From assembly GCA_963774265.1 (NCBI GenBank), contig CAVZDU010000009.1:32001-96000 (forward strand): a DNA stretch of 64,000 nt, given 5' to 3'. The notes beneath the pieces were generated by a model that was not told the origin of the DNA, searched no databases, and saw only the letters and a program-made list of their open reading frames with translations. Origin of the DNA: an uncultured Chloroflexia bacterium (lineage in GTDB: Bacteria > Chloroflexota > Anaerolineae > CG2-30-64-16). Shown piece by piece: positions 11,382-29,955 of this stretch. A program made the translations under genes and the position numbers. Within the stretch, counting starts at the first letter, position 1; the number at the start of each line of letters is the position of its first letter.

Positions 11382-13127
11382 CTAACACCCCGGCGGCGGC
11401 GTCACGCTGGCCGGGCAGGCCCCCGTCCCCACCGGGTACGGCACGCTCATGCCGGCATCGTAGGACAGGATGATCAACGCGTCCGTGGAGTTGACAGACC
11501 CGTCTGCGTTCGCATCTCCGCAGTTCATCGGACAGAAGGCTGAGGTGTCCATGTCCGCATCGGCCGACAGGACGATCAGCGCATCGGTCGAGTTCGCAGC
11601 ACCATCGCCATTCACATCCCCCAGGGCCGGCGCACTGGCATTGGGTTCGATCGTGTACGAGTGAGAAACCCCCGTGGTATTGGATCTCACATATTCGACC
11701 GTCGCAAAGTTCGGGGCAACCTCAACGCGCAGATGGCCTGCGTTGGGCAGGACTTGGAGCGCATACGTCCCATTAGTCCCGGTGTAATAGCTACTGAACC
11801 CGGAACCGCTCATGCTGGGCGAGGGGAGTTCCTGGTAGACCACGCCGTCCCGCACTTCGTAGGCGTACACGTGATCGTGGCCGTGAAAAAAGGCGCTGAC
11901 GCCGTTGGCCACCATCAGTTGGTGAATCGGAACCCCTCCCCATCCGGGCCGTTCTGTATCGAACCCCCAGGTCGTGCCGTTGATGCTGTAGCCGCCCCAC
12001 TCGAACATGTGCGCCGGCGCAGCGCCGCCCCGGACGTAGTCTTCCGCGCCCCCCAGCCCATGATGGGCAAAGACGAACTTGAACCTGGCGTCACTGTTCT
12101 CCAAAGTCTGCTTGAACCAGTTGAACTGCGCCTGGCCCAGGGTCCAGTCCCACCGGTCACCGTAGACGGTTTCATCGCTCAGCTCTCCACCCGCAGTTCC
12201 GGCAAAGGGCTTGATCAGCGTGTACTGGTAGGGATCGATGAAGACAAAGAGCGCATCGCCCCACTCCCAGGCAAAATAGTCCTCACGCAGATGGTCGCCG
12301 CTGATCCCGGTGAGAGAGGCATCGGGATTTCCGGAGTAGAAGCTGTCCGGGATCGGATTGGGATAGTACCGCTTGCGGGCATTGATGCTCAGCAGGGCGA
12401 TGCTGTTGGTGTCATCCAGGTTCCAGCCCTCTTCGTTCTCGTGGTTTCCGGCAGCCAGGAAGATGGCCGCCGAATGACTGACTCCGCTCATCCACTGGCG
12501 CTGGGCCAGGTAGCGCTGGTTGGCTGCCGAGGAAGTCGTCACTCCGTCCGTCCAGGCGGTGTCGCCCAGGTCGAAATGGAAATCGGGCTGATCGGCGCTC
12601 ACGTTGGCCAGGGCCTGCTGATACAAACTGACAGTCCCTCCACCGCCGCTCATGTGCGCGTCCGAAGCGATCGTGAAGGTGAAGGTGCTGCCGCGCGCCC
12701 TCTGCGTGTGAAACGAATGCTGCGGCCGCGCGACCCAGCTATCTCCGGCTGTGCGGTATTGCATCCGGTAGAAGTACCTGGTATCCGGAGCAAGGTTGCT
12801 GAGGGTCACGTTGGCGGGCTCACCGGCGGGGGCCGTCGTGGAGCTGGTCTGCTCCGTATAGATCTCCGACGATGTGCCATATTCGTAGTACAGCTCGATT
12901 TCCGCGTCCGGCACCACATTGATCGTGACCGAGGTGTCGGTCGGCCGGCTGAGCAGCTCCTCGCCCGTGAAGGTGATCTCCGCGGCAGCCTTGATGCCGG
13001 TTGCCGATCCTCCAACCAACGATAGGAGGATGAGCAGGAAACTGAAGCGCCTCACAGCCCTGGCGGCTTGACCACGTGAGGAACAATAGCCCCGACTATT
13101 GCCGGGCAAGAACGGATAAACTGACAT
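11382..13127 (-). CDS. Secreted metallophosphoesterase with FN3-like N-domain and C-terminal dockerin (enzyme A)
   Basis: Signal peptide; motifs SDAH, DLGDT, GNHE, FAHH, FHGHDH; duplicated dockerin GDVNGDGAANSTDALIVL / GDANADGSVNSTDALIIL at about 11445-11624. Confidence 0.88.
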   Translation of the reverse strand: MSVYPFLPGNSRGYCSSRGQAARAVRRFSFLLILLSLVGGSATGIKAAAEITFTGEELLSRPTDTSVTINVVPDAEIELYYEYGTSSEIYTEQTSSTTAPAGEPANVTLSNLAPDTRYFYRMQYRTAGDSWVARPQHSFHTQRARGSTFTFTIASDAHMSGGGGTVSLYQQALANVSADQPDFHFDLGDTAWTDGVTTSSAANQRYLAQRQWMSGVSHSAAIFLAAGNHENEEGWNLDDTNSIALLSINARKRYYPNPIPDSFYSGNPDASLTGISGDHLREDYFAWEWGDALFVFIDPYQYTLIKPFAGTAGGELSDETVYGDRWDWTLGQAQFNWFKQTLENSDARFKFVFAHHGLGGAEDYVRGGAAPAHMFEWGGYSINGTTWGFDTERPGWGGVPIHQLMVANGVSAFFHGHDHVYAYEVRDGVVYQELPSPSMSGSGFSSYYTGTNGTYALQVLPNAGHLRVEVAPNFATVEYVRSNTTGVSHSYTIEPNASAPALGDVNGDGAANSTDALIVLSADADMDTSAFCPMNCGDANADGSVNSTDALIILSYDAGMSVPYPVGTGACPASVTPPPGC

Positions 13128-13193
13128 CGTGCCCTCCTGAGGATTACTTCATTGGATGGTCAGGCTTGCCGCAAGCATCGCTTCGCAACAGTA

Positions 13194-13233
13194 GATGGTC
13201 AGGGTGCGGCGGACCGGACACACCCTGACCATC
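13194..13233. terminator. Intergenic stem-loop between enzymes B and A
   Basis: GATGGTCAGGGTG ... CACCCTGACCATC, 13-bp perfect stem; no clear U-tract. Confidence 0.55.
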
Positions 13234-13279
13234 CGTGGCCATGACAAACGCCGAAGGACTCGCAATGGCATCGATTTTG

Positions 13280-16009
13280 TTATTTCAGCTCTTGGGCACG
13301 ATCACTGCGTGCCCACCAAGTGAGGAGACTCCCCGCTACCGAGCATCCCGGCGGCTGCTCCGTCAAGCTGGCCGGACACGCACCGGTCCCCACCGGGAAC
13401 GGCACGCTCATGAGTGCGTCGTAGGACAGGATGATCAAAGCATCCGTGGAATTGACCAGCCCGTCCGCGTTCGCATCCCCGCAGTTCATCGGACAGAACG
13501 CCGCGGTGTCCATGTCCGCATCCGCGGACAGCACGATCAACGCATCCGTCGAGTTCGCCAGCACATCCCCATTCACATCCCCCAGCACTCCCCCCGCACT
13601 CACCACCACCTGCCCGTCCGTGATCATTAACTGCGGCAGCAGGTTGGCGAAGGTCGTGGCCGCCGCCATCACCGTGTACCCCAGGTCCAGCCCGCTCGTC
13701 CCCGCAGCGATGGCGTTGAAGGTGACCTGGAAGACCACGGTGTTGCCGGTCGCGCCGGTAGCGTTGGCCCCATTGAACGAGAGCGAGCCGCTGCCGGTCT
13801 GCCCGGTGTTCACCGCACCCGTGAAGCCCCCCAGCAGGTCGGAGTGGCTGGCATATTGCAGCACCGCCGGGTCCCACGCCAGCGACCCCGTGAAGCTCCC
13901 CAGCTTGTCATTGGGCGCCACAGCCCCCGTCATGTCGATGTTGACGCTCACCACCACCTGCCCGCCCGCGGCCACCGTCCCCGCGGACGGCGTCGCCGCC
14001 GACGTGATGGCGCCAACCTCCACAAAGTTGGCGGTCACGGTCTTATCGGCATTCATTGTGACCGAGCAGCTGGTGCCGCTGCTGCTGTTGCAGCCGCTCC
14101 AGGAACTGAACGCGTAGCCGGTCAGCGGAGTCGCCGTCACGGGGACCACCGTCCCGTAGGCATAGGTGTGCACGCCCACCGCCGGATTGGTCGTCCCCGC
14201 GCCGCTCGGGTTCACCGCAATGGTCAGATCGTGGGTGACCGTGGCAAAGTGTGCGGTGACGCTCCGGTCCTCGTCCATCGTCACCAAGCAGGCGCCGCTG
14301 CCGGTGCAGTCGCCGCTCCAGTGGTCAAACGTGTGCCCGGGGTTCGCCGTCGCCGTCACGCTGACGCTCTGGCCCTGGGGATATGTATGGGTCCCCGCCG
14401 ACGGGCTAATCGTGCCACCCCCGGCCGGGTCGACCGCGGTCGTCAGCACCTGCGTCGGGCCGCTGATGTACGGATCAATCGTGTACGACAGCGAAAAGTT
14501 GGATGGAGTGCACGATCCCGTTGTGGACCTGACATATTCGACGGTCGCCAGATCCGACGCGATCGTGATCTTCAGGTGGCCCGAGTTGGGGCAAATGGCA
14601 ATCGTCTCATAGTCCGTGTAGGTACCCACGGTGTAGATGCCGCCGAATACGCCGCCGCCCATGCTGGGCGAGGGGACTTCCTGGTAGACGATGCCGTCCC
14701 GCTTCTCATAGACGTACCCGTGATCGTGCCCGTGGAAGTAGCCGCTGACGTGGTTGTCCAGCATCAACTGGTGGATCGGCACCGGAAAGTCCTCTGCAGT
14801 GCGGTTGTCCGCAAAGCCCTCGGTGCCGTCAAAGTTCTTTCCCCCCCACTCGAAATACCCGGCTGCCTCGGCGCCGCCGCGCACGTACCCTGCTCCACCG
14901 CTGACACTATTATCCGGAATCCCGCCTACCATCTGATGGGAGAACATGAACTTGTACCTGGCAGTGCTGTTCTCCAGAGTCTGCTTCAGCCAGGCGTACT
15001 GCTCGGCGCCCAGCGTCCAGAGCCACTGGTCGGCAACGACCGTTTCGTCGCTCTCTTCGTTGGCGATGGCGGTATAGGGCATGGTCATGGTGTACTGGAA
15101 CGGGTCGATGACCACGAACAGCGCATCGCCCCATTCCCAGGCGTAATAGTCCTCGCGGTACTCGTCACCGTAAGTCGCTTCGTCAATCGCAGCCAAGGGA
15201 TCCGTGTTCGCCGAGTAGAACCCGTCGTTGATCGGAGTGGGGTAGAACGCCTTGCGCGCCTGGATGCTGAGCAAGGCACGGCTGGGAGTATCATCCAGGT
15301 TCCAGCCCTCTTCTTCCTCGTGATTGCCCGACGACAGAAAGATCGGAACCGAATGGCCGATGCGGTCAAAGTACGTTGGCTCGCGGAAATTCAGATACCT
15401 GGTATTGACCGCACTCTGGGTCTCTGACGACGCGTTGTCCACCATGAAGGTGTCGCCCAGGTCGACAGCAAAGTCAGGCAGTTCACCGAGGATGTTGTTC
15501 ATCGTCGTTGACCCGGCGTTGCCATGCGCGTCGGAGGTGACGGTGAAGACAAACGGGCTGCCCGCAGCGCGCTGCGTCCAGAACGAGTGCTCCGTCCGCA
15601 CCACCCAGTCGTCCATGGCCTCTCCAGGAGCATGGTAGCGCAGGCGGTAAAAGTACTGGGTGTTGGCCGTCAGCCCGCTCATGGTGATCTCGTGCGGCTG
15701 GCCGCCGGTGGCCGTGACGTTGGGCGTCTGCAAAGTATAAGAAGGTGCTGACGCAGGCCGGTACTGGTAGTGATACTCGATCGTCGACACGGGAACGATG
15801 TTGATCGTCACCGCCGCGTCGGTCGGCTTGCCGAGGAGCTCCTCCGCGGTGAAGGTGATCGTCGTGGCGGCCTGCACAGAGAGGATGGATCCCCCCACCG
15901 ACGACAAGACCAGAATCAGGAGAATGAGGACTCTCCCAAGCGTCGTCGGCCGAATACCAGAAACGCTCTTGTTCCGGATCATGTTGAAAAATAGCTTCTT
16001 TGCGGACAC
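13280..16009 (-). CDS. Secreted metallophosphoesterase + 2 InlB-B-like repeats + cohesin + dockerin (enzyme B)
   Basis: GTG start after GGAGG; SDAH/DLGDT/GNHE/FHGHDH; cohesin-like VVVSVNID..LGSFTGSLAWDPAVLQY..LSFNGAN..VFQVTFNA..ITDGQVVV at about 13600-14010; dockerin at about 13405-13585. Confidence 0.88.
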   Translation of the reverse strand: MSAKKLFFNMIRNKSVSGIRPTTLGRVLILLILVLSSVGGSILSVQAATTITFTAEELLGKPTDAAVTINIVPVSTIEYHYQYRPASAPSYTLQTPNVTATGGQPHEITMSGLTANTQYFYRLRYHAPGEAMDDWVVRTEHSFWTQRAAGSPFVFTVTSDAHGNAGSTTMNNILGELPDFAVDLGDTFMVDNASSETQSAVNTRYLNFREPTYFDRIGHSVPIFLSSGNHEEEEGWNLDDTPSRALLSIQARKAFYPTPINDGFYSANTDPLAAIDEATYGDEYREDYYAWEWGDALFVVIDPFQYTMTMPYTAIANEESDETVVADQWLWTLGAEQYAWLKQTLENSTARYKFMFSHQMVGGIPDNSVSGGAGYVRGGAEAAGYFEWGGKNFDGTEGFADNRTAEDFPVPIHQLMLDNHVSGYFHGHDHGYVYEKRDGIVYQEVPSPSMGGGVFGGIYTVGTYTDYETIAICPNSGHLKITIASDLATVEYVRSTTGSCTPSNFSLSYTIDPYISGPTQVLTTAVDPAGGGTISPSAGTHTYPQGQSVSVTATANPGHTFDHWSGDCTGSGACLVTMDEDRSVTAHFATVTHDLTIAVNPSGAGTTNPAVGVHTYAYGTVVPVTATPLTGYAFSSWSGCNSSSGTSCSVTMNADKTVTANFVEVGAITSAATPSAGTVAAGGQVVVSVNIDMTGAVAPNDKLGSFTGSLAWDPAVLQYASHSDLLGGFTGAVNTGQTGSGSLSFNGANATGATGNTVVFQVTFNAIAAGTSGLDLGYTVMAAATTFANLLPQLMITDGQVVVSAGGVLGDVNGDVLANSTDALIVLSADADMDTAAFCPMNCGDANADGLVNSTDALIILSYDALMSVPFPVGTGACPASLTEQPPGCSVAGSLLTWWARSDRAQELK

Positions 16010-16109
16010 GGTGTCCTCCACTGGTAAGATGATGTCGCCTCTCCCGGGTTGGGTCCAGCGATCGACGAAGCAGCAGGTTCACAGGATGGCTCTGCGCCCA
16101 CCCCCGGCG

Positions 16110-16658
16110 CTATATGTTCCTGACGATCATCGGGAGATAGATCGTCGTACCCACGACAACCTGCCCATCCCTGACCGTGAGAACTGGCAGCAGGCTCGCA
16201 AACGTCGTCGCGGCAGCCATGGTCGAGTAGCCCAGATTGAGGGGGCTGGTTCCGGCTCCCACCACGTCGAAGGTGATGGCGAGAACGGTGATATTGCCGG
16301 TGACCCCGGTTGCATTTGCCCCATTGAAGACAAGATGTCCGGGCGAGGGATTGACCACACCGGTGAAACCGGCCAGGATCCCCGAATGGCTGCTGTACTT
16401 GAGTACGGCAGTATTCCAATCCAGGGTGCCGGTGAACGATCCCAGTTTGTTATCGGGTGTATTGACGCCGGAGACGTCGATGTTGATGCTGACCACAATC
16501 TGTTGGCCGACGCTCGGCGCAGCATTTGAAGCCGCAGCCGTTGATGTCGCAACGCCGCTGACCGCGAAAGCCGGAGCACCTCCGCTCATCACGCCAGCGA
16601 GCACCAGAACGACAGCCGTCAGCAGGCGCCAACAAAGCGGGATACATGAAGATGCCAT
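16110..16658 (-). CDS. Single-cohesin secreted protein with C-terminal YLP tail (putative anchoring scaffoldin, C)
   Basis: Signal peptide ending PAFA; cohesin-like IVVSINID..LGSFTGTLDWNTAVLKY..ITFDVVG..DGQVVV; ends TIYLPMIVRNI. Confidence 0.8.
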   Translation of the reverse strand: MASSCIPLCWRLLTAVVLVLAGVMSGGAPAFAVSGVATSTAAASNAAPSVGQQIVVSINIDVSGVNTPDNKLGSFTGTLDWNTAVLKYSSHSGILAGFTGVVNPSPGHLVFNGANATGVTGNITVLAITFDVVGAGTSPLNLGYSTMAAATTFASLLPVLTVRDGQVVVGTTIYLPMIVRNI

Positions 16659-16785: not shown

Positions 16786-16791
16786 CCGACG

Positions 16792-19700
16792 CTACTGATT
16801 CTTGCTGATTAACGGTAAGTACAGGTAGTACGTCCGTACACTGAAATGGGCGGTGACGGTCTTGTTTGCGTCCATGGTGACCGAACAAGAACCGGCGCCG
16901 GTGCAGGCCCCACTCCAGGAGTCGAACTTGTACCCGGCCGCGGGGGTCGCCGTGACCGCGACGACGGCGCCTGACGTATAGGTGTGGACGCCCACCGCAG
17001 GATTCGTGGTGCCACTTCCTAGCGGGTCGACGGCGATGGTCAGGCTAAAGATCTGGACGTAGTTGACCGTGGCAGTGCGAGCGGCGGCAGGCATGGTGAC
17101 CGTGTTGGTGGTCGCCGTGCTGGCGTTGTTGTCCGTGCCGCTCCAGCTGCCCACAGTCCAGCCTGCGCCCGGCGTAGCGGTAAGGCTGACCACCGTGCCT
17201 GCCAGGTACTGCCCAGGAGCGCAGCCGGTCGAGTTGGCCGGGCTGGGTGCCGGGTCAGTGCCAGTGCCGGTGTGGGTCAGCGTCAGCGCGTAGCAGGTCG
17301 GCGGGATTTCGATGTAGTTGACTGTGACAGTCCGCACCGCTGCCGGCATGGTGACTTGGTTGGTAGTCGCCGCGCTGCCGTCGTTGTCGGTGCCGATCCA
17401 GCTACCCACGGTCCAGCCCGAGCCAGGCGTGGCGGTGAGGGTGATGACCGCGGCGGCCACGTACTGCCCGGAAGTGCAGCCGGTCGAGTTGGCCGGGCTA
17501 GCCACCGGGTCGGTGCCGTTGCCCGTGTGGATCCTGGTCAGCGCATAGCAGGTCGGCTGGATTTCGGTGTAGGTGACGCTCGCGGCGTGCGCCGCAGCCG
17601 GCATGGTCACCTGGTTAGTGGTCGAGGTGCTGGCATCGTCGTCGGTGCCGGTCCAGCTGCCCACCTTCCAGCCTGAGCCGGGTGCGGCCGTGAGGCTGAT
17701 GACCGCGCCCGCCACGTACTGCCCGGCAGAGCAGCCGGTCGAGTTCGTCGGGCTGGCTGCCGGATCGCTGCCCGTGCCCGTGTGGGTTAGCGTCAGCGCA
17801 TAGCAGACGGGCGGGATTTCGACGTAATTAACCGTGACCGTCTGCGGCCAATCGGGCATTACGACCGTGTTGGTGGTGGACGTGCTGGTATCGTCGTTGG
17901 TGCCAAGCCAGCTGCCCACGGTCCAGCCTGAGTCAGGGGCAGCGGTGAGCGTGATGACCTCGTCCGCCACATAGAGTCCAACGGCGCAGCCGGTCGAGCG
18001 GATCGGGCTGGCCACCGGGTTGGAGCCGGCGCCCGTGTGCGTCCTCACCAACCAATTGCACGCCGGTTGGATTTCAGTATAGGCGACGCTCGCGGCGTGT
18101 GCCGCAGCCGGCATGGTCACCTGGTTGGTGGTCGAGGTGCTGGCATCGTTGTCGGTGCCGGTCCAGCTGCCCACGGTCCAGCCGGAGGCAGGCGCGGCCG
18201 TGAGGCTGATCACCGCGCCCGCCGCGTACTGCCCAGCCGCACAGCCGGTCGAGTTCGCCGGGCTGGCTGTCGGGTCGGACCCGGTGCCCGTGTGGGTCAG
18301 CGTCAGCGCGTAGCAGGTCGCGGTCCACTGCCGCGTACAGCGTGATGTCTGCCGCAAACGAATAGGTCGCCCCGTTCGTATACGCCGTGCCCCCGCCGCC
18401 GGACGCCGTGTTCCAGCCGCCGAACGTGTAGCCCGCGCGTGAACGTGTTGAGCTTCAGCGCCGTCGGCACGCTGGCCGTCTGCGCCGTCATCGTGCCCGT
18501 CCCACCGTTGGCGTTGAACGTCACCGTGTGGTTGGCCGCGGTCGCAGTGACCGAATCGTCGGTCACCGTCACGCCCGGCAGCATGTTACAGATGCTTACC
18601 GCTGCCGCCATGGCCGTGTAGTTCAGGTCCAGCGCACTCGTCCCCGCTGCCACCACATTGAACGTGATGGCAGTGACGGTCACGTCCCCCGAACCACTCG
18701 CATTCGCCCCGTTGAACGTGATGCTCCCCGTCCCCGCATTGGCCGTGTTGACGTTGCCCGTGAAGCCGCTCGGCAGATTCGTGTTGCTCACGTACGTCAG
18801 CACCGCCGGGTTCCACGCCAGCGAGCCCGTGAAGCTCCCCAGCAAGACACCGGTCGGCACATCGATGGCGATCGTCGCCACGATCTGCTGGCCCACCCCC
18901 GGCGTGTCGTTCGATGCACTCACCGACGACGCCGCTCCACCGCAGGACGTGGATGCCCACTGCGCGTACAACGTGATGTCCGCCGCAAACGAGTAGACCT
19001 GGCCGTCGGTGTAGGCCGTCCCCGAACCGTTGGACGCCGTGTTCCACCCGCTGAACGTGTACCCCGTCCGCGTGCAACGTGTTTGCCTTCAGCGCCGTCG
19101 GCACCGCGGCGACCTGCGCCGTCATCGTGCCCGTCCCACCGTTCGCATTGAACGTCACCGTGTGGCTGACCCCTGTCGCAGTGACCGAATCGTCGGTCAC
19201 CGTCACGCCCGGCAGCATGTTACAGATGCTTACCGCTGCCGCCATGGCCGTGTAGTTCAGGTCCAGCGCACTCGTCCCCGCTGCCACCACATTGAACGTG
19301 ATGGCAGTGACGGTCACGTCCCCCGAACCACTCGCATTCGCCCCGTTGAACGTGATGCTCCCCGTCCCCGCATTGGCCGTGTTGATGACGCCCGTGAAGC
19401 CGCTCGGCAGAGTCGTGTTGCTCACGTACGTCAGCACCGCCGGGTTCCAGGTCAGCGAGCCCGTGAAGCTCCCCAGCAAGACACCGGTCGGCACATCGAT
19501 GGCGATCGTCGCCACGATCTGCTGGCCCACCGCCGGCGCGTCGTTCGATGCACTCACCGACGACGCCGCTCCACCGCAGGTCGCTTCGGCAAAGTTCGCC
19601 GTGACGCTCTTCGCCGCATCCATCGTCACCGCGCACGTCCCCGTCCCGCTGCACCCCGCACCGCTCCAGCCCGTAAACGTCGACCCCGCCGAAGCTGCGG

Positions 19701-21763
19701 CCGTCAGCGTCACCGACTGGTTGTAGTTGTAGGCCTCCGAGCAGTCTGCTCCGCAGCTGATGCCGGCCGGCGCACTCGTCACCGTCCCGCTCCCTGTGCC
19801 GGTCTTACTCACCGTCAGCGTGTACGTGTTCAGCGTGAAGTTCGCCGTGACGCTCTTCGCCGCATCCATCGTCACCGCGCACGTCCCCGTCCCGCTGCAC
19901 CCCGCACCGCTCCAGCCCGTAAACGTCGACCCCGCCGAAGCTGCGGCCGTCAGCGTCACCGACGAGCCGGCGTTGAAGCTCGCCGAGCACGTCGAGCCAC
20001 AGTTGATCCCCGCCGGTGCACTCGTCACCGTCCCGCTGCCCGTGCCGGTCTTGCTCACCGTCAGCGTGTACGTCGGCGCATTCACCGTCACCGAACTATC
20101 GTAGATCGTCAGAATGGGCAGCAGGCTCGGGAAGGGAGAGCCAGCCGCCGCCATGGCCGAGTAGTCCAGATCCAAGGCGCTAGTCCCTACTGCCGCCGCG
20201 GTGAAAGTCACCACCAGCACGGTCACGTCGCCGGTTGCACCGTCGGGATTGCTCCCGTTGAACGTGATGGTCCCGCTCCCGGCATTGGTGATATTCACGA
20301 TACCGGAAAAGCCCGCCGGCGGGGCGCCGGAGTAGCTTACGTACGTCAGGACAGCAGGATCCCGAATCTAGCGTGCCGCTGTAACTGCCCAGCTCGGCGC
20401 CGGAGGCGTTGGTCATGTCGATGTCAATGGTGACCACAACCTGTTGGCCGACCGTCCGTACACTGAAGTCAGGCGATGCCGACGACACCACGCTGTTGCT
20501 CGATGCGGCAAAGTTCGCCGTGACGCTCTTCGCCGCATCCATCGTCACCGCGCACGTCCCCGTCCCGCTGCACCCCGCACCGCTCCAGCCCGTAAACGTC
20601 GACCCCGCCGAAGCCGCGGCCGTCAGCGTCACCGACTGGTTGTAGTTGTAGGCCTCCGAGCAGTCTGCTCCGCAGCTGATGCCGGCCGGCGCACTCGTCA
20701 CCGTCCCGCTCCCTGTGCCGGTCTTGCTCACCGTCAGTGTGTAGGTGTTCAGCGTGAAGTTCGCCGTGACGCTCTTCGCCGCATCCATCGTCACCGTGCA
20801 CGTCCCCGTCCCGCTGCACCCCGCACCGCTCCAGCCCGTAAACGTCGACCCCGCCGAAGCTGCGGCCGTCAGCGTCACCGACTGGTTGTAGTTGTAGGCC
20901 TCCGAGCAGTCTGCTCCGCAGCTGATGCCGGCCGGCGCACTCGTCACCGTCCCGCTCCCTGTGCCGGTCTTACTCACCGTCAGCGTGTACGTGTTCAGCG
21001 TGAAGTTCGCCGTGACGCTCTTCGCCGCATCCATCGTCACCGCGCACGTCCCCGTCCCGCTGCACCCCGCACCGCTCCAGCCCGTAAACGTCGACCCCGC
21101 CGAAGCTGCGGCCGTCAGCGTCACCGACGAGCCGGCGTTGAAGCTCGCCGAGCACGTCGAGCCACAGTTGATCCCCGCCGGTGCACTCGTCACCGTCCCG
21201 CTGCCCGTGCCGGTCTTGCTCACCGTCAGGGTGTACGTCGACGCGGCCACAGTGACTGAACCATCCGTGACCGTAGTGATGTTGGCCATCAAGCTCTGCA
21301 GGTTAATCGCGGTAGCCATAGCGGAAAAGTTCAGGTCGAGGGTACTTGTCCCCGTTCCTATCACCAGGAAGGTAACGCGGTAGACCTCCACCACATCCTG
21401 CATGCCATCGACGTTGGTCCCGTTGATGGTCAGCAGCCCATTGTCAACCTGGCTGGTATTGGTAGACCCGCTGAAACCATTCTGGTATTGGCGGCTTTGA
21501 TAATCCAGGATGGCTGCGTCCCACTGCAACGTGGAGCTAAAACTCCCCAACAGGTCGTCGGGATACTGCATGTTGGTGACATCAATCGTGACGCTTACGG
21601 TGATCGTGTCACCGTTGTTCGGCGCCGCGTTCGAAGGCGTTGCCGCCGCGGTCACACTGCCCGTTGCAGCAAATGCCGGCACAGCTCCCAGCATCGCGGC
21701 GTTGAACGCCAGGGCGATCACCAGCAACAGACGCCAGTAAAACAAAGTGTGTTTGGTTTTCAT
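16792..21763 (-). CDS. Four-cohesin scaffoldin-like surface protein with InlB-B-type spacer repeats and YLP tail (D; about 1650 aa, split by apparent indels)
   Basis: ATG 21763 with RBS and signal peptide MKTKHTLFYWRLLLVIALAFNAAMLGAVPAFA. Cohesins at about 21250-21665, 20085-20495, 19175-19575 and 18541-18945. ORFs 20180..21865, 18586..20298, 18303..18971 and 16792..18357 continue mid-domain across frame changes. Ends YYLYLPLISKNQ. Confidence 0.8.
17055..18318 (-). repeat. Five 255-bp (85-aa) coding repeats in the scaffoldin stalk
   Basis: CYALTLTHTGTGSDPxASPxNSTGCxxGQY... recurs with a 255-bp period (about 17281, 17536, 17791, 18046, 18301). Confidence 0.85.
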
Positions 21764-21812: not shown

Positions 21813-23574
21813 TCACGGGCATCCTGCTGGCTTGGTGACGGTGGCTGGGCACGCGCCGGTCTCAACCGGGAACGCCACGCTCATGCCCACGTCGAAGGAC
21901 AGGATGATCAGCGCGTCGGTAGAATTCACGTACCCGTCCGCATTCACATCGCCACAGTTCATGGGACAGTACTGCGTGCTGTCAATGCCTACGTCGGCCG
22001 AGAGGACGATCAGGGCATCGGTCGAGTTCGCCTCGCCGTCGTCATTGACGTCACCCAGGACCGAGACAGGCAGTTCCCCGCCCTCGATGGTGAAGCTGTG
22101 CACGGCCGTGGCCTGGTCCATGCGGAAGTACTGGACCGTCGTCTCATCCGGTGCCACGGTCACGAGCACGTGGCCGCAGTTGGGCTGAGTGGCGATGGTG
22201 TACCCGCTGCCGGCGGTGTACATGTTGAACCCGCTCCCGTTGTTGCCCCAGCCGGCGACGGGCATGGACAGGTAGACCACGTTATCCTTCTTCTCGTAGG
22301 CGTACTGGTGATCGTGGCCATGGAACACGGCGTCGACGCCGTAATTGTTAAAAATCGTGTGCAGCGGCTCGCTACCCCACCCGGCGCGCCTGGTGGCCCA
22401 GGAATAGGTGGTGCCATCCTCGTCGTAGCCGCCCATCTCCACCAGGTTCACGTGATTGGCGCCGGCATGGCCATAGTCCTCCTGGTTGTTTAGGCTGGCG
22501 TCGGTCGGCATCTGGTGGGTAAAGACGAACTTGTACGTGGCGTTGCTGTTCTGCAGGGTCGTCTTGACCCAGTTGAACTGCGTCTGCCCCAGGGTCCAGG
22601 ACCAGGCATCGCCGGTTCCCGTCCCGTTCGTCTCGCCGCCGCCCGGGTCGTTGACGTACGGCTTGGACGTCGTGTACCAGTAGGGGTCGATCACCATGAA
22701 CAGCGCGTCGCCCCAGGTCCAGGCGTAGTAGCTTTCCTTGTACTGATCGCCCCCCAGCAAGGGCTCAAGCGCCGTGTCGCCGGTGTAGAACCCGCCTGGC
22801 TGCGGCATCGGGAAGTACTTTTTCTGGGCTTTGGTACCGATGATGGGCAGGCTGTCCACGGGATCGCCGGCATCGTTCGGCGTGCCAGCGACGTGCCAGT
22901 TTTCCTTCTGCTCGTGGTTCCCGGGGATTAGGAACACCGGCGCCGAGTGGCTGAACAGGTTAGAAGTACTGGTACTGGTCGATGTAGGCCTGGTTGGCTC
23001 CCGCCTGATCGCTGGGATCCACATTGGTGTACATGGCCACGGTGTCGCCGAGGTCAAAGTGGAATTCCGGGTTATGAGCGGCGACCTCCTGGGCTACATT
23101 CGTCCATGTGGCCGACTGGCCCATCAGAATGCCCACGTGCGAGTCGGAGGTGAGGGTGAAGCTGAAGGTGCTGCCCGCCGCACGGGCCGTCTGGAAGGAG
23201 CGTTCCGTCCGCGTCTCCCAGGTGGAGCCACCATCGGTGCTGTATTGCATCCGGTAGTAGTACTTGGTGTTGGTGCTCAGGCTACCGAGGACTACGGTCG
23301 TGGGCGCATTGGCCGCCGCGGCCGTGTTGCCGGTAGTGGTGTATGGTCCCCCGGGCGCGGTGCCGTACTGGAAGCGCACGGTGATCGCCGTCTGGGGGAC
23401 GAAGGTGACGGAGATTGAATTGGCCGTCGGCCGGGTGAGCAGCTCCGTTCCGGTGAAGGTGATCGGCGCCGCATGAACAGGTGGTGCTGGCACGACCACC
23501 AGCGCAGAGAGCAGGACCAGGAGCGCCGTGAACCTCCCGATCGTGGCCAGATGAATCCATGATCTGTGTTGCAT
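21813..23574 (-). CDS. Secreted metallophosphoesterase with FN3-like N-domain and dockerin (enzyme E; frameshift near 22965)
   Basis: ORF 22960..23574 supplies the signal peptide, SDSH and DLGDT; ORF 21813..23057 supplies GNHE, FHGHDH and the dockerin GDVNDDGEANSTDALIVL / GDVNADGYVNSTDALIIL. Confidence 0.85.
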
Positions 23575-23682: not shown

Positions 23683-26073
23683 TCAAGGACCACACCCCGG
23701 CGGCGGCGTTACGGTGGCCGGGCACGCGGCCGTCCCCACCGGGAACTGCACACTCATCAGTGCATCGTAGGACAGGATGATCAGCGCATCGGTGGAATTG
23801 ACCAGCCCGTCCCCGTTCGCATCGCCGCAGTTCATCGGACAGAACGCCGCCGTGTCCATGTCGGCATCGGCCGACAGCACGATCAGCGCATCGGTCGAGT
23901 TTGCCGCGCCGTCGCCGTTGACATCCCCCAGCACCCTGTCCGCACTCACCACCACCTGGCCGTCGGTGATCGCCAACTGCGGCAGCAGATTCGCAAAGGT
24001 CGTCGCGGCGGCCATGACCGTATAGCCCAAGTCCAACACACTCGTGCCTGCACCCACCGCATTGAACGTGACCTGGTACACCACGGTGTTGCCGGTCGCG
24101 CCGCTTGAATTCGCCCCGTTGAACGACAGCGAGCCGCTTCCTGCGTTCACCGCACCGGTGAACCCACCCAGTGGACCCGAGTTGCTGACGTAGCTGAGCA
24201 CCGCCGGGTCCCACGCCAGCGACCCCGTGAAACTGCCCAGCTTCGCGCCGGATGGCGTCGCACCGCTCATGTCGATGTTGATGCTCACCACCACCTGCCC
24301 GCCCACGGCCACCGTCCCCGCAGACGGCGTCGCCGCCGACGTGATGGTCCCCACTTCCACGAAGTTGGCCGTCACCGTCTTGGCGGAGGTCATGGTGACC
24401 GAGCACGTGCTGCCGCTGCAATCGCCGCTCCACGAGCTAAAGGCGTAGCCGGTGTTGGGGGTGGCCGTGACATTGACCGCCGTGTCCTCGGGATAGCTGT
24501 GCACGCCTGCCGCCGGGTTGGTCGTGGCGGCACCCACCGGATTCACCGCGACGGTCAGATCGTAGACCGGCGGCGGCAAGGTGAAGGAGTAGAGGATCTC
24601 CCCATCGTTCCCGGATAGTAAGGACCGCACATAATCCACCTGGACCTGGTCCGCAGAGACATCCACGCGGATATGGCCGCAGGCGAGCTGGATGTTGTCC
24701 CCCGTGGGGTAACCGCCGCCGTCGTTGCGATAGTCGGTGGTGCTGGTGATGTCGTCCGGTTTCGGCACCTCAAGATACACGATGCCGTCGAGCTCTTCCT
24801 TAGAGAAAAAGTGGTCATGCCCATGGAAGAGGATGTCGACGTCGTTGGCCACCAGCAGGTCATGAATCGGCATTTCCCAGCCCGGCCGTTCCGTGGCAAA
24901 GCCCTCCGTGCCATCAGCGTTCTTGCCGCCCCACTCAAAGAGCTCGGCTGCAGCAATCCCACCCCGGCCATAGGGAATCACCCCGCCGGTCAGGTGGTGA
25001 GTAAATACGAATTTCCAGGTGGCATCGCTGTCTTCCAGCGTGGCCTTCAGCCAGTCGTACTGCTGCTTGCCCAGGGTCCAGTCCCAGCGGTCACCCGACG
25101 CCTCGCCATCCGCCCCTTCCCCGCCATATCCCGCTCCATTATCATTGGGCCAGGTCATGGAGTAGTGGAACGGGTCCAGAACCACGAACAGCGCATCGCC
25201 CCATTCCCAGGCATAGTAATCCTCGTGCAGGTGATCGCCCTCGATGAGCGTGTTGCTGGTGTCGGTGTTGCCGGTGTAGAAATCGTCCGGGACCGGGTTG
25301 GGGATGTACAGCTTGCGCGCCTTGATGCCGCGGATGGCCAGCGAGCCTTCGGGCGGGGTGAACACGTCATCCCAGTTCCAGCCCTCTTCATTCTCATGGT
25401 TGCCGATGGCCAGGAAGAACGGGATTTCGGCGCCGATGATGTTCAGGGAGGCGGGCTGGCGCTGGACACGATATGCCGCATCGGCGTTCGCTTCCGTCAT
25501 CCCGTTGCCCAGGCCAGTGCCGTAGGGCGCTAGTGGGTCCATGGCGAAGGTATCGCCCAGGTCGATGTGAAAGTCGGGCGGCTCGGCCGCGATGTGGGTC
25601 AGGCTGCGCTGGTACAGATTCCTCTGCTCCGTCGTCTGCCCGCCGTACTGCCCCAGGTGCGAGTCGGAGATGATGGTAAAGGTGAAGGGGCTGCCCGGCG
25701 CGCGCTGGGTGTGGAACGAGTGCTGGCCGCCCCCCGTCCACGGGTCGCCGCTGGTGGCCCGGAAGCGCACCTGGTAGTAGTACTCGGTATCGGCCGTAAG
25801 CCCGTCGATCACCACTTCGACGGGCTCGTTCGCGGTGCACGCGGTGGCGGTTGTCTCGGAGCCGTAAGAGGGCGTGGCGCCATACTCGAGAGAAATCTGG
25901 CCGCTCTGGTCCGGGATCACGTTGGCGGTGACCGAGTGATCCGTAGGCCGGCCCAGCAGGATGCTGAAGTCGGCCACCGCCTGAGGGGCGGACACGGAGC
26001 CGCTCGCGTTCAACACGAACGCAAACAGCAGCACCAGGATCACCGGCAGCGTCAGAACTCGCCTGCGTCTCAT
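23683..26073 (-). CDS. Secreted metallophosphoesterase + InlB-B-like repeat + cohesin + dockerin (enzyme F)
   Basis: Signal peptide; SDSH/DLGDT/GNHE/FHGHDH; cohesin at about 23945-24345; dockerin at about 23755-23932. Confidence 0.88.
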   Translation of the reverse strand: MRRRRVLTLPVILVLLFAFVLNASGSVSAPQAVADFSILLGRPTDHSVTANVIPDQSGQISLEYGATPSYGSETTATACTANEPVEVVIDGLTADTEYYYQVRFRATSGDPWTGGGQHSFHTQRAPGSPFTFTIISDSHLGQYGGQTTEQRNLYQRSLTHIAAEPPDFHIDLGDTFAMDPLAPYGTGLGNGMTEANADAAYRVQRQPASLNIIGAEIPFFLAIGNHENEEGWNWDDVFTPPEGSLAIRGIKARKLYIPNPVPDDFYTGNTDTSNTLIEGDHLHEDYYAWEWGDALFVVLDPFHYSMTWPNDNGAGYGGEGADGEASGDRWDWTLGKQQYDWLKATLEDSDATWKFVFTHHLTGGVIPYGRGGIAAAELFEWGGKNADGTEGFATERPGWEMPIHDLLVANDVDILFHGHDHFFSKEELDGIVYLEVPKPDDITSTTDYRNDGGGYPTGDNIQLACGHIRVDVSADQVQVDYVRSLLSGNDGEILYSFTLPPPVYDLTVAVNPVGAATTNPAAGVHSYPEDTAVNVTATPNTGYAFSSWSGDCSGSTCSVTMTSAKTVTANFVEVGTITSAATPSAGTVAVGGQVVVSINIDMSGATPSGAKLGSFTGSLAWDPAVLSYVSNSGPLGGFTGAVNAGSGSLSFNGANSSGATGNTVVYQVTFNAVGAGTSVLDLGYTVMAAATTFANLLPQLAITDGQVVVSADRVLGDVNGDGAANSTDALIVLSADADMDTAAFCPMNCGDANGDGLVNSTDALIILSYDALMSVQFPVGTAACPATVTPPPGCGP

Positions 26074-26103
26074 CGATCCTCTCCTTTACTCGTCCGTCCC
26101 TCA

Positions 26104-26132: not shown

Positions 26133-26157
26133 CTTCCATCAAACGAGATCCTGCAGA

Positions 26158-29100
26158 TCAGCGCGGCAGCATGCCGAACCACTTGCGGAGGCCTTCCGGC
26201 GCGCCGACGACGCATCCAGCCGGCTGAGCGGTCAAGTCAGGCTCCTCGACCGGCTCTCCCACCGGGAGCGCACCGACGCCGTAACCCACATCGTACGTCA
26301 GGATGATCAGGGCATCTGTCGAATTAGCCAGCCCATCGGCGTTCACGTCACCGTAATTCATGGGGCAGAAATCGGCGCTCGCAGCAGGCAGTCCGGCGTC
26401 GACGGTAAGGACGATAAGTGCATCGGTGGAGTCCACCGAGCCATCCAAGTTGACATCGCCCAGCAGGCGGAGGTAGTTCACACCCGCGGAATGCGCCTCG
26501 GCCGGCATGGTCAGGCTGTTCGTGGCCGCCGTGCTCTCGTCGTTAGCGGTGCCGTACCAGCTCGCGATCCCCCAGCCCGTGGCCGGGACCGCCCCGCTCA
26601 GGTTGATCAGCTCACCCGCGGCGAACTGGCCGGTTGGGCAACTGATCGAGTTGATCGCTTCGCCGGTCGGATCCGTCCCGCTGCCGGTGTGCCCCAGGGT
26701 CAGCTCGTAGCAGACCGCCGTCCACTGCGCATACAGCGTGACGTTGGCTGAGCCGATTACGAACGTATCGCCGGCATTGTAGCTGGTGCCCAAGCCGTCA
26801 GCCTGGGTGTTCCACCCCGCGAAGGTGTAGCCGGTCTTCACCAACGAGCCGGTGTTGCCCAGCACCGTCACCGTCGCACCGAAATTGTAGGGGCTCGCGG
26901 GGTCGGTCGGGGCTGTGCCGCCGGTGCTGCCGTTGCCAGCGTAGGTCACGGTGTAGCTGTTGATCGTCCACTTGGCGTACAGCGTCACGTTGGCTGCGCC
27001 GATCACGAACGTGTCGCCAGCATTGTAGCTGGTGCCCAAGCCGTCAGCCTGGGTGTTCCACCCCGCGAAGGTGTAGCCGGTCTTCACCAACGAGCCGGTG
27101 TTGCCCAGCACCGTCACCGTCGCACCGAAATTGTAGGGACTGGAGGGGTCAGTTGGGGCTGTGCCGCCGGTGCTGCCGTTGCCAGCGTAGGTCACGGTAT
27201 AGCTGTTGATCGTCCACTTGGCGTACAGCGTGACGTTGGCTGCGCCGATCACGAACGTGTCGCCAGCATTGTAGCTGGTGCCCAAGCCGTCAGCCTGGGT
27301 GTTCCACCCCGCGAAGGTGTAGCCGGTCTTCACCAACGAGCCGGTGTTGCCCAGCACCGTCACCGTCGCACCGAAATTGTAGGGGCTCGCGGGGTCGGTC
27401 GGGGCTGTGCCGCCGGTGCTGCCGTTGCCAGCGTAGGTCACGGTGTAGCTGTTGATCGTCCACTTGGCGTACAGCGTCACGTTGGCTGCGCCGATCACGA
27501 ACGTGTCGCCAGCATTGTAGCTGGTGCCCAAGCCGTCAGCCTGGGTGTTCCAGCCCGCGAAGGTGTAGCCGGTCTTCACCAACGAGCCGGTGTTGCCCAG
27601 CACCGTCACCGTCGCACCGAAATTGTAGGGGCTCGCGGGGTCGGTCGGGGCTGTGCCGCCGGTGCTGCCGTTGCCAGCGTAGGTCACGGTATAGCTGTTG
27701 ATCGTCCACTTGGCGTACAGCGTCACGTTGGCTGCGCCGATCACGAACGTGTCGCCAGCATTGTAGCTGGTGCCCAAGCCGTCAGCCTGGGTGTTCCAGC
27801 CCGCGAAGGTGTAGCCGGTCTTCACCAACGAGCCGGTGTTGCCCAGCACCGTCACGGTCGATCCAGAATTGTAGGGACTGGAGGGGTCAGTTGGGGCTGT
27901 GCCGCCGGTGCTGCCGTTGCCAGCGTAGGTGACGGTGAAGGTCGGACTGCTGGCGGTAGTAAAGGTCCACGTCGGACCCTGGATGCCGTAGAAGCCGTCG
28001 TTAACCGTCACATACCACTCATACTGCGTCGATGCCGTGAGACCCGGCCAGCTCATCGTCGCATTGGTGCCGCTGGCAACGGCGTAAGCCGTGCCCAGAT
28101 TCGTCCAGGATCCGGCTCCCACTGCCCGGCCGTAGAACGTGACATCGGTCGCGTTCCCATCCGCGTCGTTGACCGTCACTTCCAGTGTCGGCGAGGTGCT
28201 GACACCCGTCGTGCCGGAGGGCGTAGGAGACACCAGCGTTGGCTGGCTGGGCGCGGTGTTGTTGGCGAGGCAGTAGGTGACGCTCAGTACGGGAGGGGTC
28301 GTCCCTTCGCGTGAATCAAAGACCAGTGGGTCCGTTGTACCGGTCGTGTAATTCTGGATGGTCACGCCATTGTTGACCCCACCGGACACCCAGCGCTGCA
28401 CAACAGGTACACCGCCGTTGGCCACAGTGGTCAGGGGCACCGTTCTGCTGCCAGCGGGGGTAAGGTTGCTCGTCGATGCAGTCCACAGGTTTACGGTGGC
28501 GCGATCAATGGACCCGGTGGTGTTTTTCGCGCCACCCGCCGTGGTCCACGCGACGGGGGCGGGGTCATAGTTGGTCCAGGAGGCGCCCGTACCCGCGGCG
28601 CCATCGTTGGTGCCCTCCACCCAGGGTTTTGCCACGTCATACATGCTTGGAGCGTACAATGTGACAGGATCCGTGACGTTAAGTGTGATGCTGGCACTGC
28701 TAACGGCAGCGAACCACGGGATACTGCTCACGTTCCATTTCAACAACGCCCCTCGCTGGGTAGCGGTCGTTCTATCAACCTGAATCGTTGTGGCGGCGCC
28801 ATAGTTGTAGGTAGTAGCGCCGCTGGCAGCGTTCATGTAGGTATCCGCCGCCGCGTTCAGATGAACAGTATTTGAGCATGGTGCTGTCTCAGTAGGAGCA
28901 AAGTTGGCGGTTACGGACTTGTCCCCGTTCATCACGATCGTAACGGCGCCGCCGCCGGCGCTGACAAGGTCGCCGGCGTTCGCACCCACCCAACCGCTAA
29001 AGAGATAGCCGGAGCTAGGGATTGGCCTAAGCGTGACCGTCCTGCCGGCGCAGATGGAAGTCTCGACGGGGCTTTGCGTTACAGTACCGTGGGCATCGTG

Positions 29101-29955
29101 GCCGACCGTCAACGTGTGGTAGTTCGAACCCGCGCAGACCGGGTTAATTGCCGCCGCGACATCTACCCAGATGCCGGTTGGTGGTGTCGTTCCGCCCACC
29201 GTCCAACTCATCGTGACCGAGTTGGCTAAGTTGGCATCCTGGGTGCTGGCATAACCCCCCGCCTGTCCAGCCGCGAGATTCCATCCAGTCAACTGCGTAT
29301 TGCCGCCACTGGCAGTCAAGGTAGAGCCGCCACCAATGAACGCGTCGTCAAATACCAACTCGTCGCCGACGAGCCCATTCAAAGTCACACCCAAGGCGTT
29401 GCTTACGTTATCAGCGCCGTTGGTCGGCCCAATTGGATTCGTCTGGTCAACATTATAGAACCTGGCGATGCCGCCTATGACGCCGTTCGTCCCTGGGGAG
29501 GTCTTGAAGGTGACCGTTACATACCCAACTTGCCCATCCGTTGGTTCTGTCGTATACCAGATCGAGGCCCATCGAAGGAGCCAGGTATTGCTTCGCGATA
29601 TGGCCTGTTTCAAGTTTATGACCGGCCCTGAAGTGGGAGTGAATGTCACCCCGGTGATAGGTGCATCAGCCGTAGCGGGATTCCAGGACACGCCAACCAC
29701 CATCAACCTGTTTGGGTTTGAACTGATCGTGATAGTTCCTGTCCCGGAAGGGATCCTAAGAGTAGCAGAACTAGTGGTCGATGAGACAACAGTAGGAGCG
29801 CCGTCCAGTGTAACGGTGGTTGCCGCCGGCGCAAGGTCCGGCAGCGGCAACGCAGGCGCGGCGAGGACCGGCGCGGCGCTGCCCATGACCAGGGCGAAGA
29901 CGACCAAAAGGATCCAGAAGCCGGAAACCGGGTGGACACGCTGTGAGTGGTTCAT
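26158..29955 (-). CDS. Secreted non-catalytic dockerin protein: unknown N-domain, DNRLRE-like domain, FN3, five InlB B-repeats, dockerin (G)
   Basis: Signal peptide; AAADTYMN..NYG..LLKWNVSSIP..SASITLNV..FDSRE..PPVLSVTY (DNRLRE-like); TVTYAGNGSTGGTAP..KTGYTFAGWNT..TLYAKW x5; dockerin GDVNLDGSVDSTDAL / GDVNADGLANSTDAL. Confidence 0.82.
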   Translation of the reverse strand: MNHSQRVHPVSGFWILLVVFALVMGSAAPVLAAPALPLPDLAPAATTVTLDGAPTVVSSTTSSATLRIPSGTGTITISSNPNRLMVVGVSWNPATADAPITGVTFTPTSGPVINLKQAISRSNTWLLRWASIWYTTEPTDGQVGYVTVTFKTSPGTNGVIGGIARFYNVDQTNPIGPTNGADNVSNALGVTLNGLVGDELVFDDAFIGGGSTLTASGGNTQLTGWNLAAGQAGGYASTQDANLANSVTMSWTVGGTTPPTGIWVDVAAAINPVCAGSNYHTLTVGHDAHGTVTQSPVETSICAGRTVTLRPIPSSGYLFSGWVGANAGDLVSAGGGAVTIVMNGDKSVTANFAPTETAPCSNTVHLNAAADTYMNAASGATTYNYGAATTIQVDRTTATQRGALLKWNVSSIPWFAAVSSASITLNVTDPVTLYAPSMYDVAKPWVEGTNDGAAGTGASWTNYDPAPVAWTTAGGAKNTTGSIDRATVNLWTASTSNLTPAGSRTVPLTTVANGGVPVVQRWVSGGVNNGVTIQNYTTGTTDPLVFDSREGTTPPVLSVTYCLANNTAPSQPTLVSPTPSGTTGVSTSPTLEVTVNDADGNATDVTFYGRAVGAGSWTNLGTAYAVASGTNATMSWPGLTASTQYEWYVTVNDGFYGIQGPTWTFTTASSPTFTVTYAGNGSTGGTAPTDPSSPYNSGSTVTVLGNTGSLVKTGYTFAGWNTQADGLGTSYNAGDTFVIGAANVTLYAKWTINSYTVTYAGNGSTGGTAPTDPASPYNFGATVTVLGNTGSLVKTGYTFAGWNTQADGLGTSYNAGDTFVIGAANVTLYAKWTINSYTVTYAGNGSTGGTAPTDPASPYNFGATVTVLGNTGSLVKTGYTFAGWNTQADGLGTSYNAGDTFVIGAANVTLYAKWTINSYTVTYAGNGSTGGTAPTDPSSPYNFGATVTVLGNTGSLVKTGYTFAGWNTQADGLGTSYNAGDTFVIGAANVTLYAKWTINSYTVTYAGNGSTGGTAPTDPASPYNFGATVTVLGNTGSLVKTGYTFAGWNTQADGLGTSYNAGDTFVIGSANVTLYAQWTAVCYELTLGHTGSGTDPTGEAINSISCPTGQFAAGELINLSGAVPATGWGIASWYGTANDESTAATNSLTMPAEAHSAGVNYLRLLGDVNLDGSVDSTDALIVLTVDAGLPAASADFCPMNYGDVNADGLANSTDALIILTYDVGYGVGALPVGEPVEEPDLTAQPAGCVVGAPEGLRKWFGMLPR
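26720..27940 (-). repeat. Five near-identical 246-bp (82-aa) InlB-B/Listeria-Bacteroides coding repeats
   Basis: The GTAGGT-ACGGT unit recurs at about 26941, 27187, 27433, 27679 and 27925. Confidence 0.9.

Follow-up and report, generated by a model that had tools for sequence, protein, structure and literature searches.

The seven-gene cluster and its modules

The window analyzed here is the whole stretch of 64,000 nucleotides taken from a contig of an uncultured Chloroflexia bacterium (CAVZDU010000009.1, positions 32,001 to 96,000), and all coordinates are positions in that window unless a contig or locus is named. At 11382-29955 it contains a cluster of seven genes whose products combine cohesin and dockerin modules with metallophosphoesterase domains. 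Every long domain-bearing open reading frame (ORF) in this interval lies on the minus strand; the seven genes are co-oriented, are separated by gaps of ~50-150 nt, and in order of transcription read G-F-E-D-C-B-A. The genome assembly comprises 5.5 Mb in 10 contigs and is 84% complete with 5.7% contamination. Lengths are in amino acids (aa), and PAP denotes purple acid phosphatase.

26158..29955, minus strand: gene G, 1265 aa; signal peptide, ~250-aa N-terminal domain without assignment, Flg_new_2 repeats, CBM96, five Flg_new repeats, dockerin
23683..26073, minus strand: gene F, 796 aa; signal peptide, PAP-N-like domain, metallophosphoesterase, Flg_new_2, cohesin, dockerin
21813..23574, minus strand: gene E, in two frames (pieces 22963-23574 and 21816-23093), ~586 aa if one enzyme; signal peptide, PAP-N-like domain, metallophosphoesterase, dockerin
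16792..21763, minus strand: gene D, the scaffoldin, in five frame pieces, ~1650 aa if read through
16110..16658, minus strand: gene C, 182 aa; signal peptide, one cohesin, YLP-box tail
13280..16021, minus strand: gene B, 913 aa; signal peptide, PAP-N-like domain, metallophosphoesterase, two Flg_new_2, cohesin, dockerin
11382..13127, minus strand: gene A, 581 aa; signal peptide, PAP-N-like domain, metallophosphoesterase, dockerin

Each of the seven products begins with a basic/hydrophobic segment ending in A-x-A, as judged by eye. Gene D extends to 16795, the 521-aa ORF at 16792-18357 being its C-terminal part, and its module order is signal peptide, cohesin 1, three Flg_new_2 repeats, cohesin 2, two Flg_new_2 repeats, cohesin 3, one Flg_new repeat, cohesin 4, one Flg_new repeat, ~6 Flg_new_2 repeats and a YLP-box tail. 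Glycoside hydrolase families gave no Pfam or NCBIfam match in any of the seven proteins.

Five of the proteins (A, B, E, F and G) end in a duplicated dockerin. Four of the dockerins exceed the 22.9-bit cut-off of Pfam Dockerin_1 (PF00404), with 32.6 bits for A, 30.6 for E, 28.5 for F and 25.8 for G; that of B scores 17.5 bits, under the cut-off, yet is 83% identical to the dockerin of A. All five dockerins were also delimited with our own hidden Markov model (HMM) and alignment:

11385..11639, minus strand: dockerin of A; Dockerin_1 match and PDB sequence match
13352..13600, minus strand: dockerin of B; own HMM and alignment
21816..22073, minus strand: dockerin of E; own HMM and alignment
23686..23946, minus strand: dockerin of F; own HMM and alignment
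26221..26478, minus strand: dockerin of G; own HMM and alignment; divergent, 55% identical to that of A

The dockerins of A, B, E and F are mutually 72-85% identical; in sequence, that of A matches type-I dockerins of solved structure (1ohz_B, E 4e-4). All five dockerins, and 22 homologues as well, have both tandem segments of ~22 residues, each an EF-hand-like Ca loop followed by a helix. Our yardstick for dockerin repeats was the EF-hand loop pattern D-x-N-x-D...D; a D-x-N-x-D-G-x-x-N-S-T-D loop is kept in both repeats, with a Ser-Thr pair at loop positions 10-11 of each, the pair that serves recognition in the type-I dockerins of C. thermocellum. The two repeats are also nearly identical, which points to a dual mode of binding. 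A conserved F/Y-C-P-M-N-C-G-D linker joins the repeats in A, B, E, F and homologues, a G-C-P motif follows the second helix, with three conserved cysteines in all, and four of the five proteins have a fourth cysteine, in a PPGC motif at the C-terminus. These conserved cysteines suggest disulfide bracing, which is not known from clostridial dockerins.

Proteins A, B, E and F are calcineurin-like metallophosphoesterases. All four exceed the 21.5-bit cut-off of Pfam Metallophos (PF00149), with 35.4, 21.9, 28.7 and 30.6 bits, respectively, and all carry the motifs SD(A/S)H, DLGDT, GNHE, (A/S/T)H(H/Q) and HGHDH, at positions that are invariant or nearly so in 17 homologues. The Pfam PhoD family (cut-off 27) is reached by B (31.1 bits), E (30.3) and F (35.9) and just missed by A (26.7), and the NCBIfam PhoD equivalog NF058638 returned 18.2 bits against a cut-off of 1000. 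By sequence, these enzymes are distant relatives of PhoD and not PhoD orthologues. Nor does family assignment make them purple acid phosphatases: Pur_ac_phosph_N (PF16656) scored 20.1-25.6 bits, all below its cut-off of 30, and motif II reads GDTAW, GDTFM, GDTVA or GDTFA, without the Tyr ligand of the purple acid phosphatase motif GDxxY. An AlphaFold2 (AF2) model of A has a predicted local distance difference test score (pLDDT) of 66, with ~90 in the N-domain and poorly modeled long insertions. Its nearest Foldseek neighbor is B. subtilis PhoD (2yeq, E 2e-19), followed by plant purple acid phosphatases and phytases (3zk4, 6giz, 1kbp; down to E 1e-15), which share with A an N-terminal Fn3-like sandwich ahead of the metallophosphoesterase core, whereas sequence identity to these structures is only 13-16% and A has the long insertions. 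The functions represented among the nearest folds include phosphodiesterase/phosphatase (PhoD), nucleotide diphosphatase (PPD1) and phytase.

The cohesins number seven, one each in B, C and F and four in D, and these ~138-aa modules form a single family, 42-93% identical to the third cohesin of D:

23941..24357, minus strand: cohesin of F; 207 bits to own HMM
21251..21667, minus strand: D cohesin 1; most divergent, 42% identical to D cohesin 3
20083..20497, minus strand: D cohesin 2; interrupted by an extra base at 20364
19177..19590, minus strand: D cohesin 3; Pfam Cohesin E 0.005, 17.5 bits
18543..18956, minus strand: D cohesin 4; 93% identical to D cohesin 3
16146..16565, minus strand: cohesin of C; module used for the AF2 model
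13604..14020, minus strand: cohesin of B; 220 bits to own HMM

The AF2 model of the C cohesin (pLDDT 77.2) contains ten strands according to DSSP, solved cohesins being flattened beta-sandwiches of nine strands, and 39 of the 40 Foldseek matches listed for it in the PDB are cohesins, with E values from 1.6e-7 to 1.4e-5 and template modeling (TM) scores of 0.55-0.72; the one non-cohesin among those listed is the adhesin domain 9ifr. Because the model matches solved cohesins, we regard the modules as cohesin jelly-rolls, which is the structural expectation on which the original prediction had staked its case. Our own cohesin HMM also links the locus modules at E 4e-7 to a set of cohesins on another contig of the genome, C6, and that set reaches or approaches Pfam Cohesin.

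The original prediction, made from the letters of this DNA, had described seven co-oriented genes with signal peptides, five duplicated dockerins, seven cohesins distributed over B, C, D and F, four metallophosphoesterases among the five dockerin proteins and no glycoside hydrolase. This inventory was recovered in full, by the ORF and Pfam scan, by the N-terminal segments, by the 83% identity that carries B where Pfam does not, by the intact catalytic motifs, and by our alignment, HMM and structural matches of the cohesins. The HMM searches that it had proposed agreed for Dockerin_1 (A, E, F and G, with B below) and for Metallophos (A, B, E and F) and disagreed for Pfam Cohesin (17.5 against 24.1 bits). 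Its gene models stood for the modules and had to be revised for continuity: D and E are not uninterrupted genes, with four frame breaks in the former and one in the latter, and D is longer than had been drawn, to 16795.

Surface tails, distribution and origin

C and D are the only dockerin-less cohesin proteins of the locus, and both end in a YLP-box:

16801..16833, minus strand: YLP-box tail of D; ends ...YLYLPLISKNQ; NF050076 14.4 bits
16119..16145, minus strand: YLP-box tail of C; ends ...IYLPMIVRNI

The cut-offs are 15 bits for NF050076 and 10 bits for NF053834. The last 30 residues of C alone score 15.5 and 14.9 bits with these two models, and the whole protein 12.4 and 11.3 bits. On account of these NCBIfam matches we identify the tails of C and D with the catalogued YLP-box putative sorting motif. 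The pattern [YF]LP[LMIV][IVLM] occurs within the last 14 residues of 21 of the genome's 12516 stop-to-stop ORFs of at least 150 aa, and in zero to three in each of seven control windows further upstream. These 21 YLP-tailed ORFs are mostly large (for example, C2:343090-347340, C5:370813-374505 and C6:107352-114542) and follow the pattern [YF]LP[LMIV][IVLM]x0-2[RK]. No transmembrane helix follows the YLP-box, and it therefore cannot work like LPXTG or PEP-CTERM signals. S-layer homology (SLH) and sortase anchors gave no Pfam or NCBIfam match in the locus proteins. The YLP-box probably directs C and D to the cell surface or holds them there.

Homologues of the enzyme differ in their tails. Of 8000 sequences scored against protein A, 4770 are homologues at E <= 1e-10, and of the best 120 (A counted) 84 carry the locus dockerin type, four of them combining cohesin and dockerin as B and F do; precomputed Pfam annotation places PF00404 in 79 of the 120. 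The remaining 36 are dockerin-less. Three of these end directly in YLP-type tails (P0045, P0065 and P0088) and others in tails of the type IX secretion system (T9SS). Since homologues carry a dockerin, a T9SS tail or a YLP-box, the A-type enzyme appears to be targeted to the surface by interchangeable means. In the Bacteroidales locus L056 one cohesin protein ends in a T9SS sorting domain, which would be the lineage-appropriate surface anchor and a parallel to the YLP-box here.

Relatives of A are encoded in 566 stretches of species genomes, and 64 loci were kept for comparison. The dockerin type is found in 18 of the 64, and the cohesin type in 11 of those 18 dockerin loci versus none of the 46 dockerin-less loci. 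When whole genomes were searched, the cohesin type was also found in none of five dockerin-less genomes that have the enzyme. Of the 11 loci with both enzyme-dockerin and cohesin, which come from metagenome-assembled genomes (MAGs), nine are labeled Chloroflexota and two belong to Bacteroidota, namely L013 (Draconibacterium) and L056 (Bacteroidales). In related loci the enzyme ORF pieces stand in tandem, up to six to eight of them, and such six-to-eight-gene arrays suggest substrate diversification comparable to that of carbohydrate-active enzymes (CAZymes). Two related Anaerolineae loci (L004 11627-13834 and L007 3500-5680) encode an extra dockerin protein in which DUF362 (PF04015, 54-55 bits) is combined with a Flg_new_2 repeat; in these the same type of dockerin bears a cargo other than a phosphoesterase, one that the window lacks.

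Within the genome itself, our dockerin and cohesin HMMs were run over all six-frame ORFs. The locus dockerin type occurs in five genes only, all of them in the locus, with one distant dockerin on contig C6; the cohesin type has seven copies in the locus and a single further one at C7:509230-510450. Since all five same-type dockerins and seven of the eight same-type cohesins of the 84%-complete genome lie here, the locus is self-contained, as had been proposed. The eighth cohesin scores 191 bits with our HMM and lies in an ORF piece, preceded by RCC1/Kelch-like sequence and followed by an Fn3-like part; the piece probably belongs to a larger gene broken by frameshifts. Another cohesin-dockerin set, distant in sequence, occupies C6:19145-41108; several of its cohesins score higher with Pfam Cohesin than the locus modules do, with 27.8 bits at C6:40548-40922, above the cut-off. 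One of its proteins (C6:21571-23391) has a dockerin followed by a cohesin-like part, and its 212-aa cohesin protein ends in a YLP-type tail.

RpsB, encoded beside the locus, shares 68% identity with its counterpart in an Anaerolineales MAG, 58-60% with those of other Anaerolineae and 44% with that of a Draconibacterium MAG, which, together with the YLP-box tails, fits the Chloroflexota host suggested in the original prediction. Enzyme A is ~50% identical to the Draconibacterium enzyme. The system has probably been exchanged horizontally. A recent transfer recognizable by composition was considered and rejected, the GC content of the locus (0.60-0.67) resembling that of the remaining window.

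Proposed assembly and rival explanations

We think it fairly likely that the locus encodes a non-cellulosomal cohesin-dockerin assembly carrying secreted metallophosphoesterases that resemble PhoD and purple acid phosphatases. From the observed module set, folds, catalytic motifs, conservation and co-occurrence we infer the following course of binding, localization and catalysis. All seven proteins would be exported, and D with four cohesins and C with one, both of them dockerin-less, would be sorted to the surface through the YLP-box tail. The Ca-binding dockerins of the four enzymes and of G, a CBM96 protein without catalytic function, would plug into the cohesins of D and C, and a docked B or F would offer a further socket via its own cohesin. 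With a socket as well as a plug on B and on F, the assembly could branch or chain. The clustered enzymes would hydrolyze extracellular phospho(di)esters, for which nucleic acids, teichoic-acid-like polymers, phytate and nucleotides are candidates, and G may hold the complex on a polymer through its CBM96.

A bolder version is tentative and, in our judgment, slightly more apt to be wrong than right. It holds that the locus represents a horizontally mobile, phylum-crossing "phosphatasome", a surface-anchored and self-extending system in which diversified phosphoesterases of the PhoD/PAP-like kind would be concentrated on organic phosphorus in polymeric form, for example extracellular DNA, teichoic-acid-like polymers or phytate. 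The cohesins of B and F would give it branched growth, and the anchor would be swapped by lineage, with the YLP-box in Chloroflexota and the T9SS C-terminal domain in Bacteroidota. On this version, organic phosphorus would be mineralized in wetlands, sediments and digesters by a route not recognized before.

A number of observations weigh against the proposed assembly. No phosphate-regulon genes were seen adjoining the locus. Pfam Cohesin (PF00963, cut-off 24.1 bits) is reached by no locus module, the best being the 17.5 bits of D cohesin 3; the genome-wide Pfam scan gives 16.6 bits at the place of this module, the six others, scanned singly, have no Pfam Cohesin match, and the whole locus proteins have none at E 0.01. 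A profile of six of the cohesin modules gave no match among PDB sequences at E values up to 10, and the AF2 models are of medium confidence (pLDDT 77 for the C cohesin and 66 for protein A). The D tail falls just under the NF050076 cut-off. All five frame breaks fall in D and E (6.8 kb) and none in the other five genes (~11 kb), and near-identical public contigs cover only one of the five break sites, that at 20364. In the whole-genome check of five dockerin genomes, of unstated completeness, whose fetched locus had no cohesin, the cohesin type was found elsewhere in one. The dockerin type was found in none of seven same-genus and none of 17 other same-family genomes, in one of 16 same-class genomes, and in none of 400 other genomes sampled across the phylum, with at most 14 first-look candidates scored per genome. 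As the dockerin type was found in almost none of the relatives searched, the system is accessory and patchy.

Among the rivals, the one that survives best accepts the modules as real and disputes the scaffolded multi-enzyme complex. The cohesin of B or F would bind its own or a sister dockerin to give closed monomers or dimers, or else the contacts would serve adhesion or hold together the sheath or matrix of a filamentous bacterium, the enzymes being passengers. It can draw on the adjacency of cohesin and dockerin in B and F and likewise in four of the 120 homologues, on the excess of sockets (seven) over plugs (five) in the locus, and on the Flg_new and Flg_new_2 repeats, which are typical of surface adhesins. 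Some published papers treat non-cellulosomal dockerins or cohesins as possible adhesins. We nonetheless consider this explanation unlikely: it is hard to see a role for D, with four cohesins and neither enzyme nor dockerin, or for C, with one cohesin, if they do not receive dockerins; in this genome the locus dockerin type is borne by the four enzymes and G alone; and A and E, as enzyme-dockerin proteins without a cohesin, need a partner in trans.

A second rival, that the locus is decaying and makes no functional complex here, takes the frameshifts in scaffoldin D and enzyme E as real. The breaks lie near 20364, 19080, 18440 and 18330 in D and near 22965 in E, where there is a one-base indel; all are single-base indels, and three fall in or beside repeat arrays. 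Their clustering in D and E, with A, B, C, F and G free of breaks, would agree with decay, as would the failure to find the system in the 24 closest relatives searched, expected of a losable accessory island. Against this, two essential or central genes of the same window, fba (10382-10997) and tsf (31718-32413), are each split between reading frames, which shows that single-base indel errors occur in the assembly. The extra base at 20364, the sole break covered by public contigs, is missing from the contigs of two wetland-metagenome runs, which may include the source sample (X1 record 7, 181 nt with no other differences; X2 record 11, 490 nt with two differences). Its removal restores the cohesin consensus and a 1097-aa open frame. 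The sequence flanking every break is still well conserved and domain-like. With the extra base of one D break missing from public contigs, and with fba and tsf broken too, indel errors in the assembly most likely account for the frameshifts of D and E, and we regard decay as quite improbable. An intact homologue of D with the same layout is present at L014 8120-9871, with a signal peptide, two cohesins, three Flg_new_2 repeats and a YLP-type tail.

Least probable of all, by a small step, is that the cohesin-like modules are carbohydrate-binding modules, or else generic spacers with a beta-sandwich fold, that do not bind dockerins, and that the dockerins bind something else or calcium only: the sub-threshold Pfam scores, the empty PDB profile search, the listed non-cohesin match 9ifr and the four dockerin-bearing genomes that showed no such cohesin lean that way, whereas 39 of the 40 structural neighbors listed are cohesins, the locus cohesin type was seen only in dockerin-type loci (11 of 18 versus none of 46) with none in the five dockerin-less genomes that have the enzyme, and both families are strongly conserved across two phyla.

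Known systems and neighboring features

The proposed non-cellulosomal assembly resembles the clostridial cellulosome in its parts. Acetivibrio thermocellus likewise combines a multi-cohesin scaffoldin (CipA) with single-cohesin anchor proteins (OlpA and OlpC) and enzymes that bear C-terminal duplicated Ca-loop dockerins, and the C cohesin model matches the cellulosomal cohesins 1aoh, 1anu, 1ohz_A, 3ul4 and 4dh2. It differs in having phosphoesterases and no glycoside hydrolase, and thus lacks the cargo that defines a cellulosome. The scaffoldin has no CBM3, the only carbohydrate-binding module (CBM) being the CBM96 of dockerin protein G; a YLP-box tail takes the place of an SLH or sortase anchor; the dockerin has the conserved FCPMNCGD linker and the cysteines of the GCP motif; and the host is Chloroflexota-like and not of the Bacillota. 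The amylosome of Ruminococcus bromii is a cohesin-dockerin complex for a substrate other than cellulose, and one of its enzymes carries both cohesin and dockerin, as B and F do. Unlike the locus, it has a GH13 (glycoside hydrolase family 13) amylase cargo, a sortase anchor and a Bacillota gut host.

Cohesins and dockerins outside cellulosomes are mostly known as single modules or pairs, whereas here a complete set of scaffoldin, anchor and cargo of a single enzyme class lies in one operon-like cluster. The structural neighbors of the C cohesin model include the non-cellulosomal cohesins 2xdh of Archaeoglobus fulgidus and 2jh2, 2vo8 and 2w1n of Clostridium perfringens. In the literature, non-cellulosomal cohesin-dockerin systems are an accepted category, credited to Peer et al. 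2009, and a review describes the roles of their cohesins and dockerins as unknown. The idea that the locus encodes a new kind of machine has to be given up on that ground, as does that of its uniqueness, since the synteny search found the same gene arrays in at least 11 MAG loci of two phyla. The novelty is a new cargo on a known device and not a new kind of machine. Our literature search, judged by title and abstract opening, found no description of a phosphoesterase-loaded cohesin-dockerin complex.

Cohesin-dockerin assembly has so far been understood almost wholly via the degradation of plant cell walls and starch. If the proposed assembly is correct, the principle would extend to phosphorus acquisition or the breakdown of phosphodiester polymers. 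The locus is a concrete test case for the function of non-cellulosomal cohesins and dockerins and of the putative YLP-box sorting tail, and its predicted orthogonal cohesin-dockerin pairs could be used in designer enzyme scaffolds. Without being categorically new, it is of relevance to specialists on cellulosomes and on the phosphorus cycle.

The genes that flank the locus are unrelated housekeeping genes, with rpsB and tsf upstream on the opposite strand and fba, a metallo-beta-lactamase-fold protein and glycosyltransferases downstream; ORF 287-1396 also resembles two glycosyltransferase pieces. A scan of 11000-30400 for promoters and terminators returned two promoter-like and 12 terminator-like sites, numbers not above those of shuffled sequences (3.5 and 10.6). 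Among the public sequencing runs listed as holding locus sequence there was no RNA dataset, and near-identical fragments of the locus are present in four wetland metagenome runs.

Protein G has no catalytic domain that we could find, and Pfam reports five stretches of Flg_new (205 bits) beside its Dockerin_1 match of 25.8 bits. The five near-identical Flg_new repeats correspond to a tandem array at 26719-27937 (246 nt x 5, 96% matches), and D also carries tandem repeat arrays. The one candidate binding module of G is the following:

28633..28869, minus strand: CBM96-like module of G; PF24517 28.9 bits (cut-off 26), E 1.2e-6, profile positions 2-80 of 164

Residues 35-280 of G have no Pfam match, and a Protein Atlas search returned only unnamed clusters, with a score of 0.91. 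This region (residues ~35-280, 29116-29868) contains a ~220-aa domain marked by an NRLM-VGVSW stretch. A similar stretch was seen by eye after the cohesin in L007 5684-6466, and the cohesin proteins at L002 19584-21734 and L031 2435-3775 may hold similar NRLM-VGVSW-type sequence.

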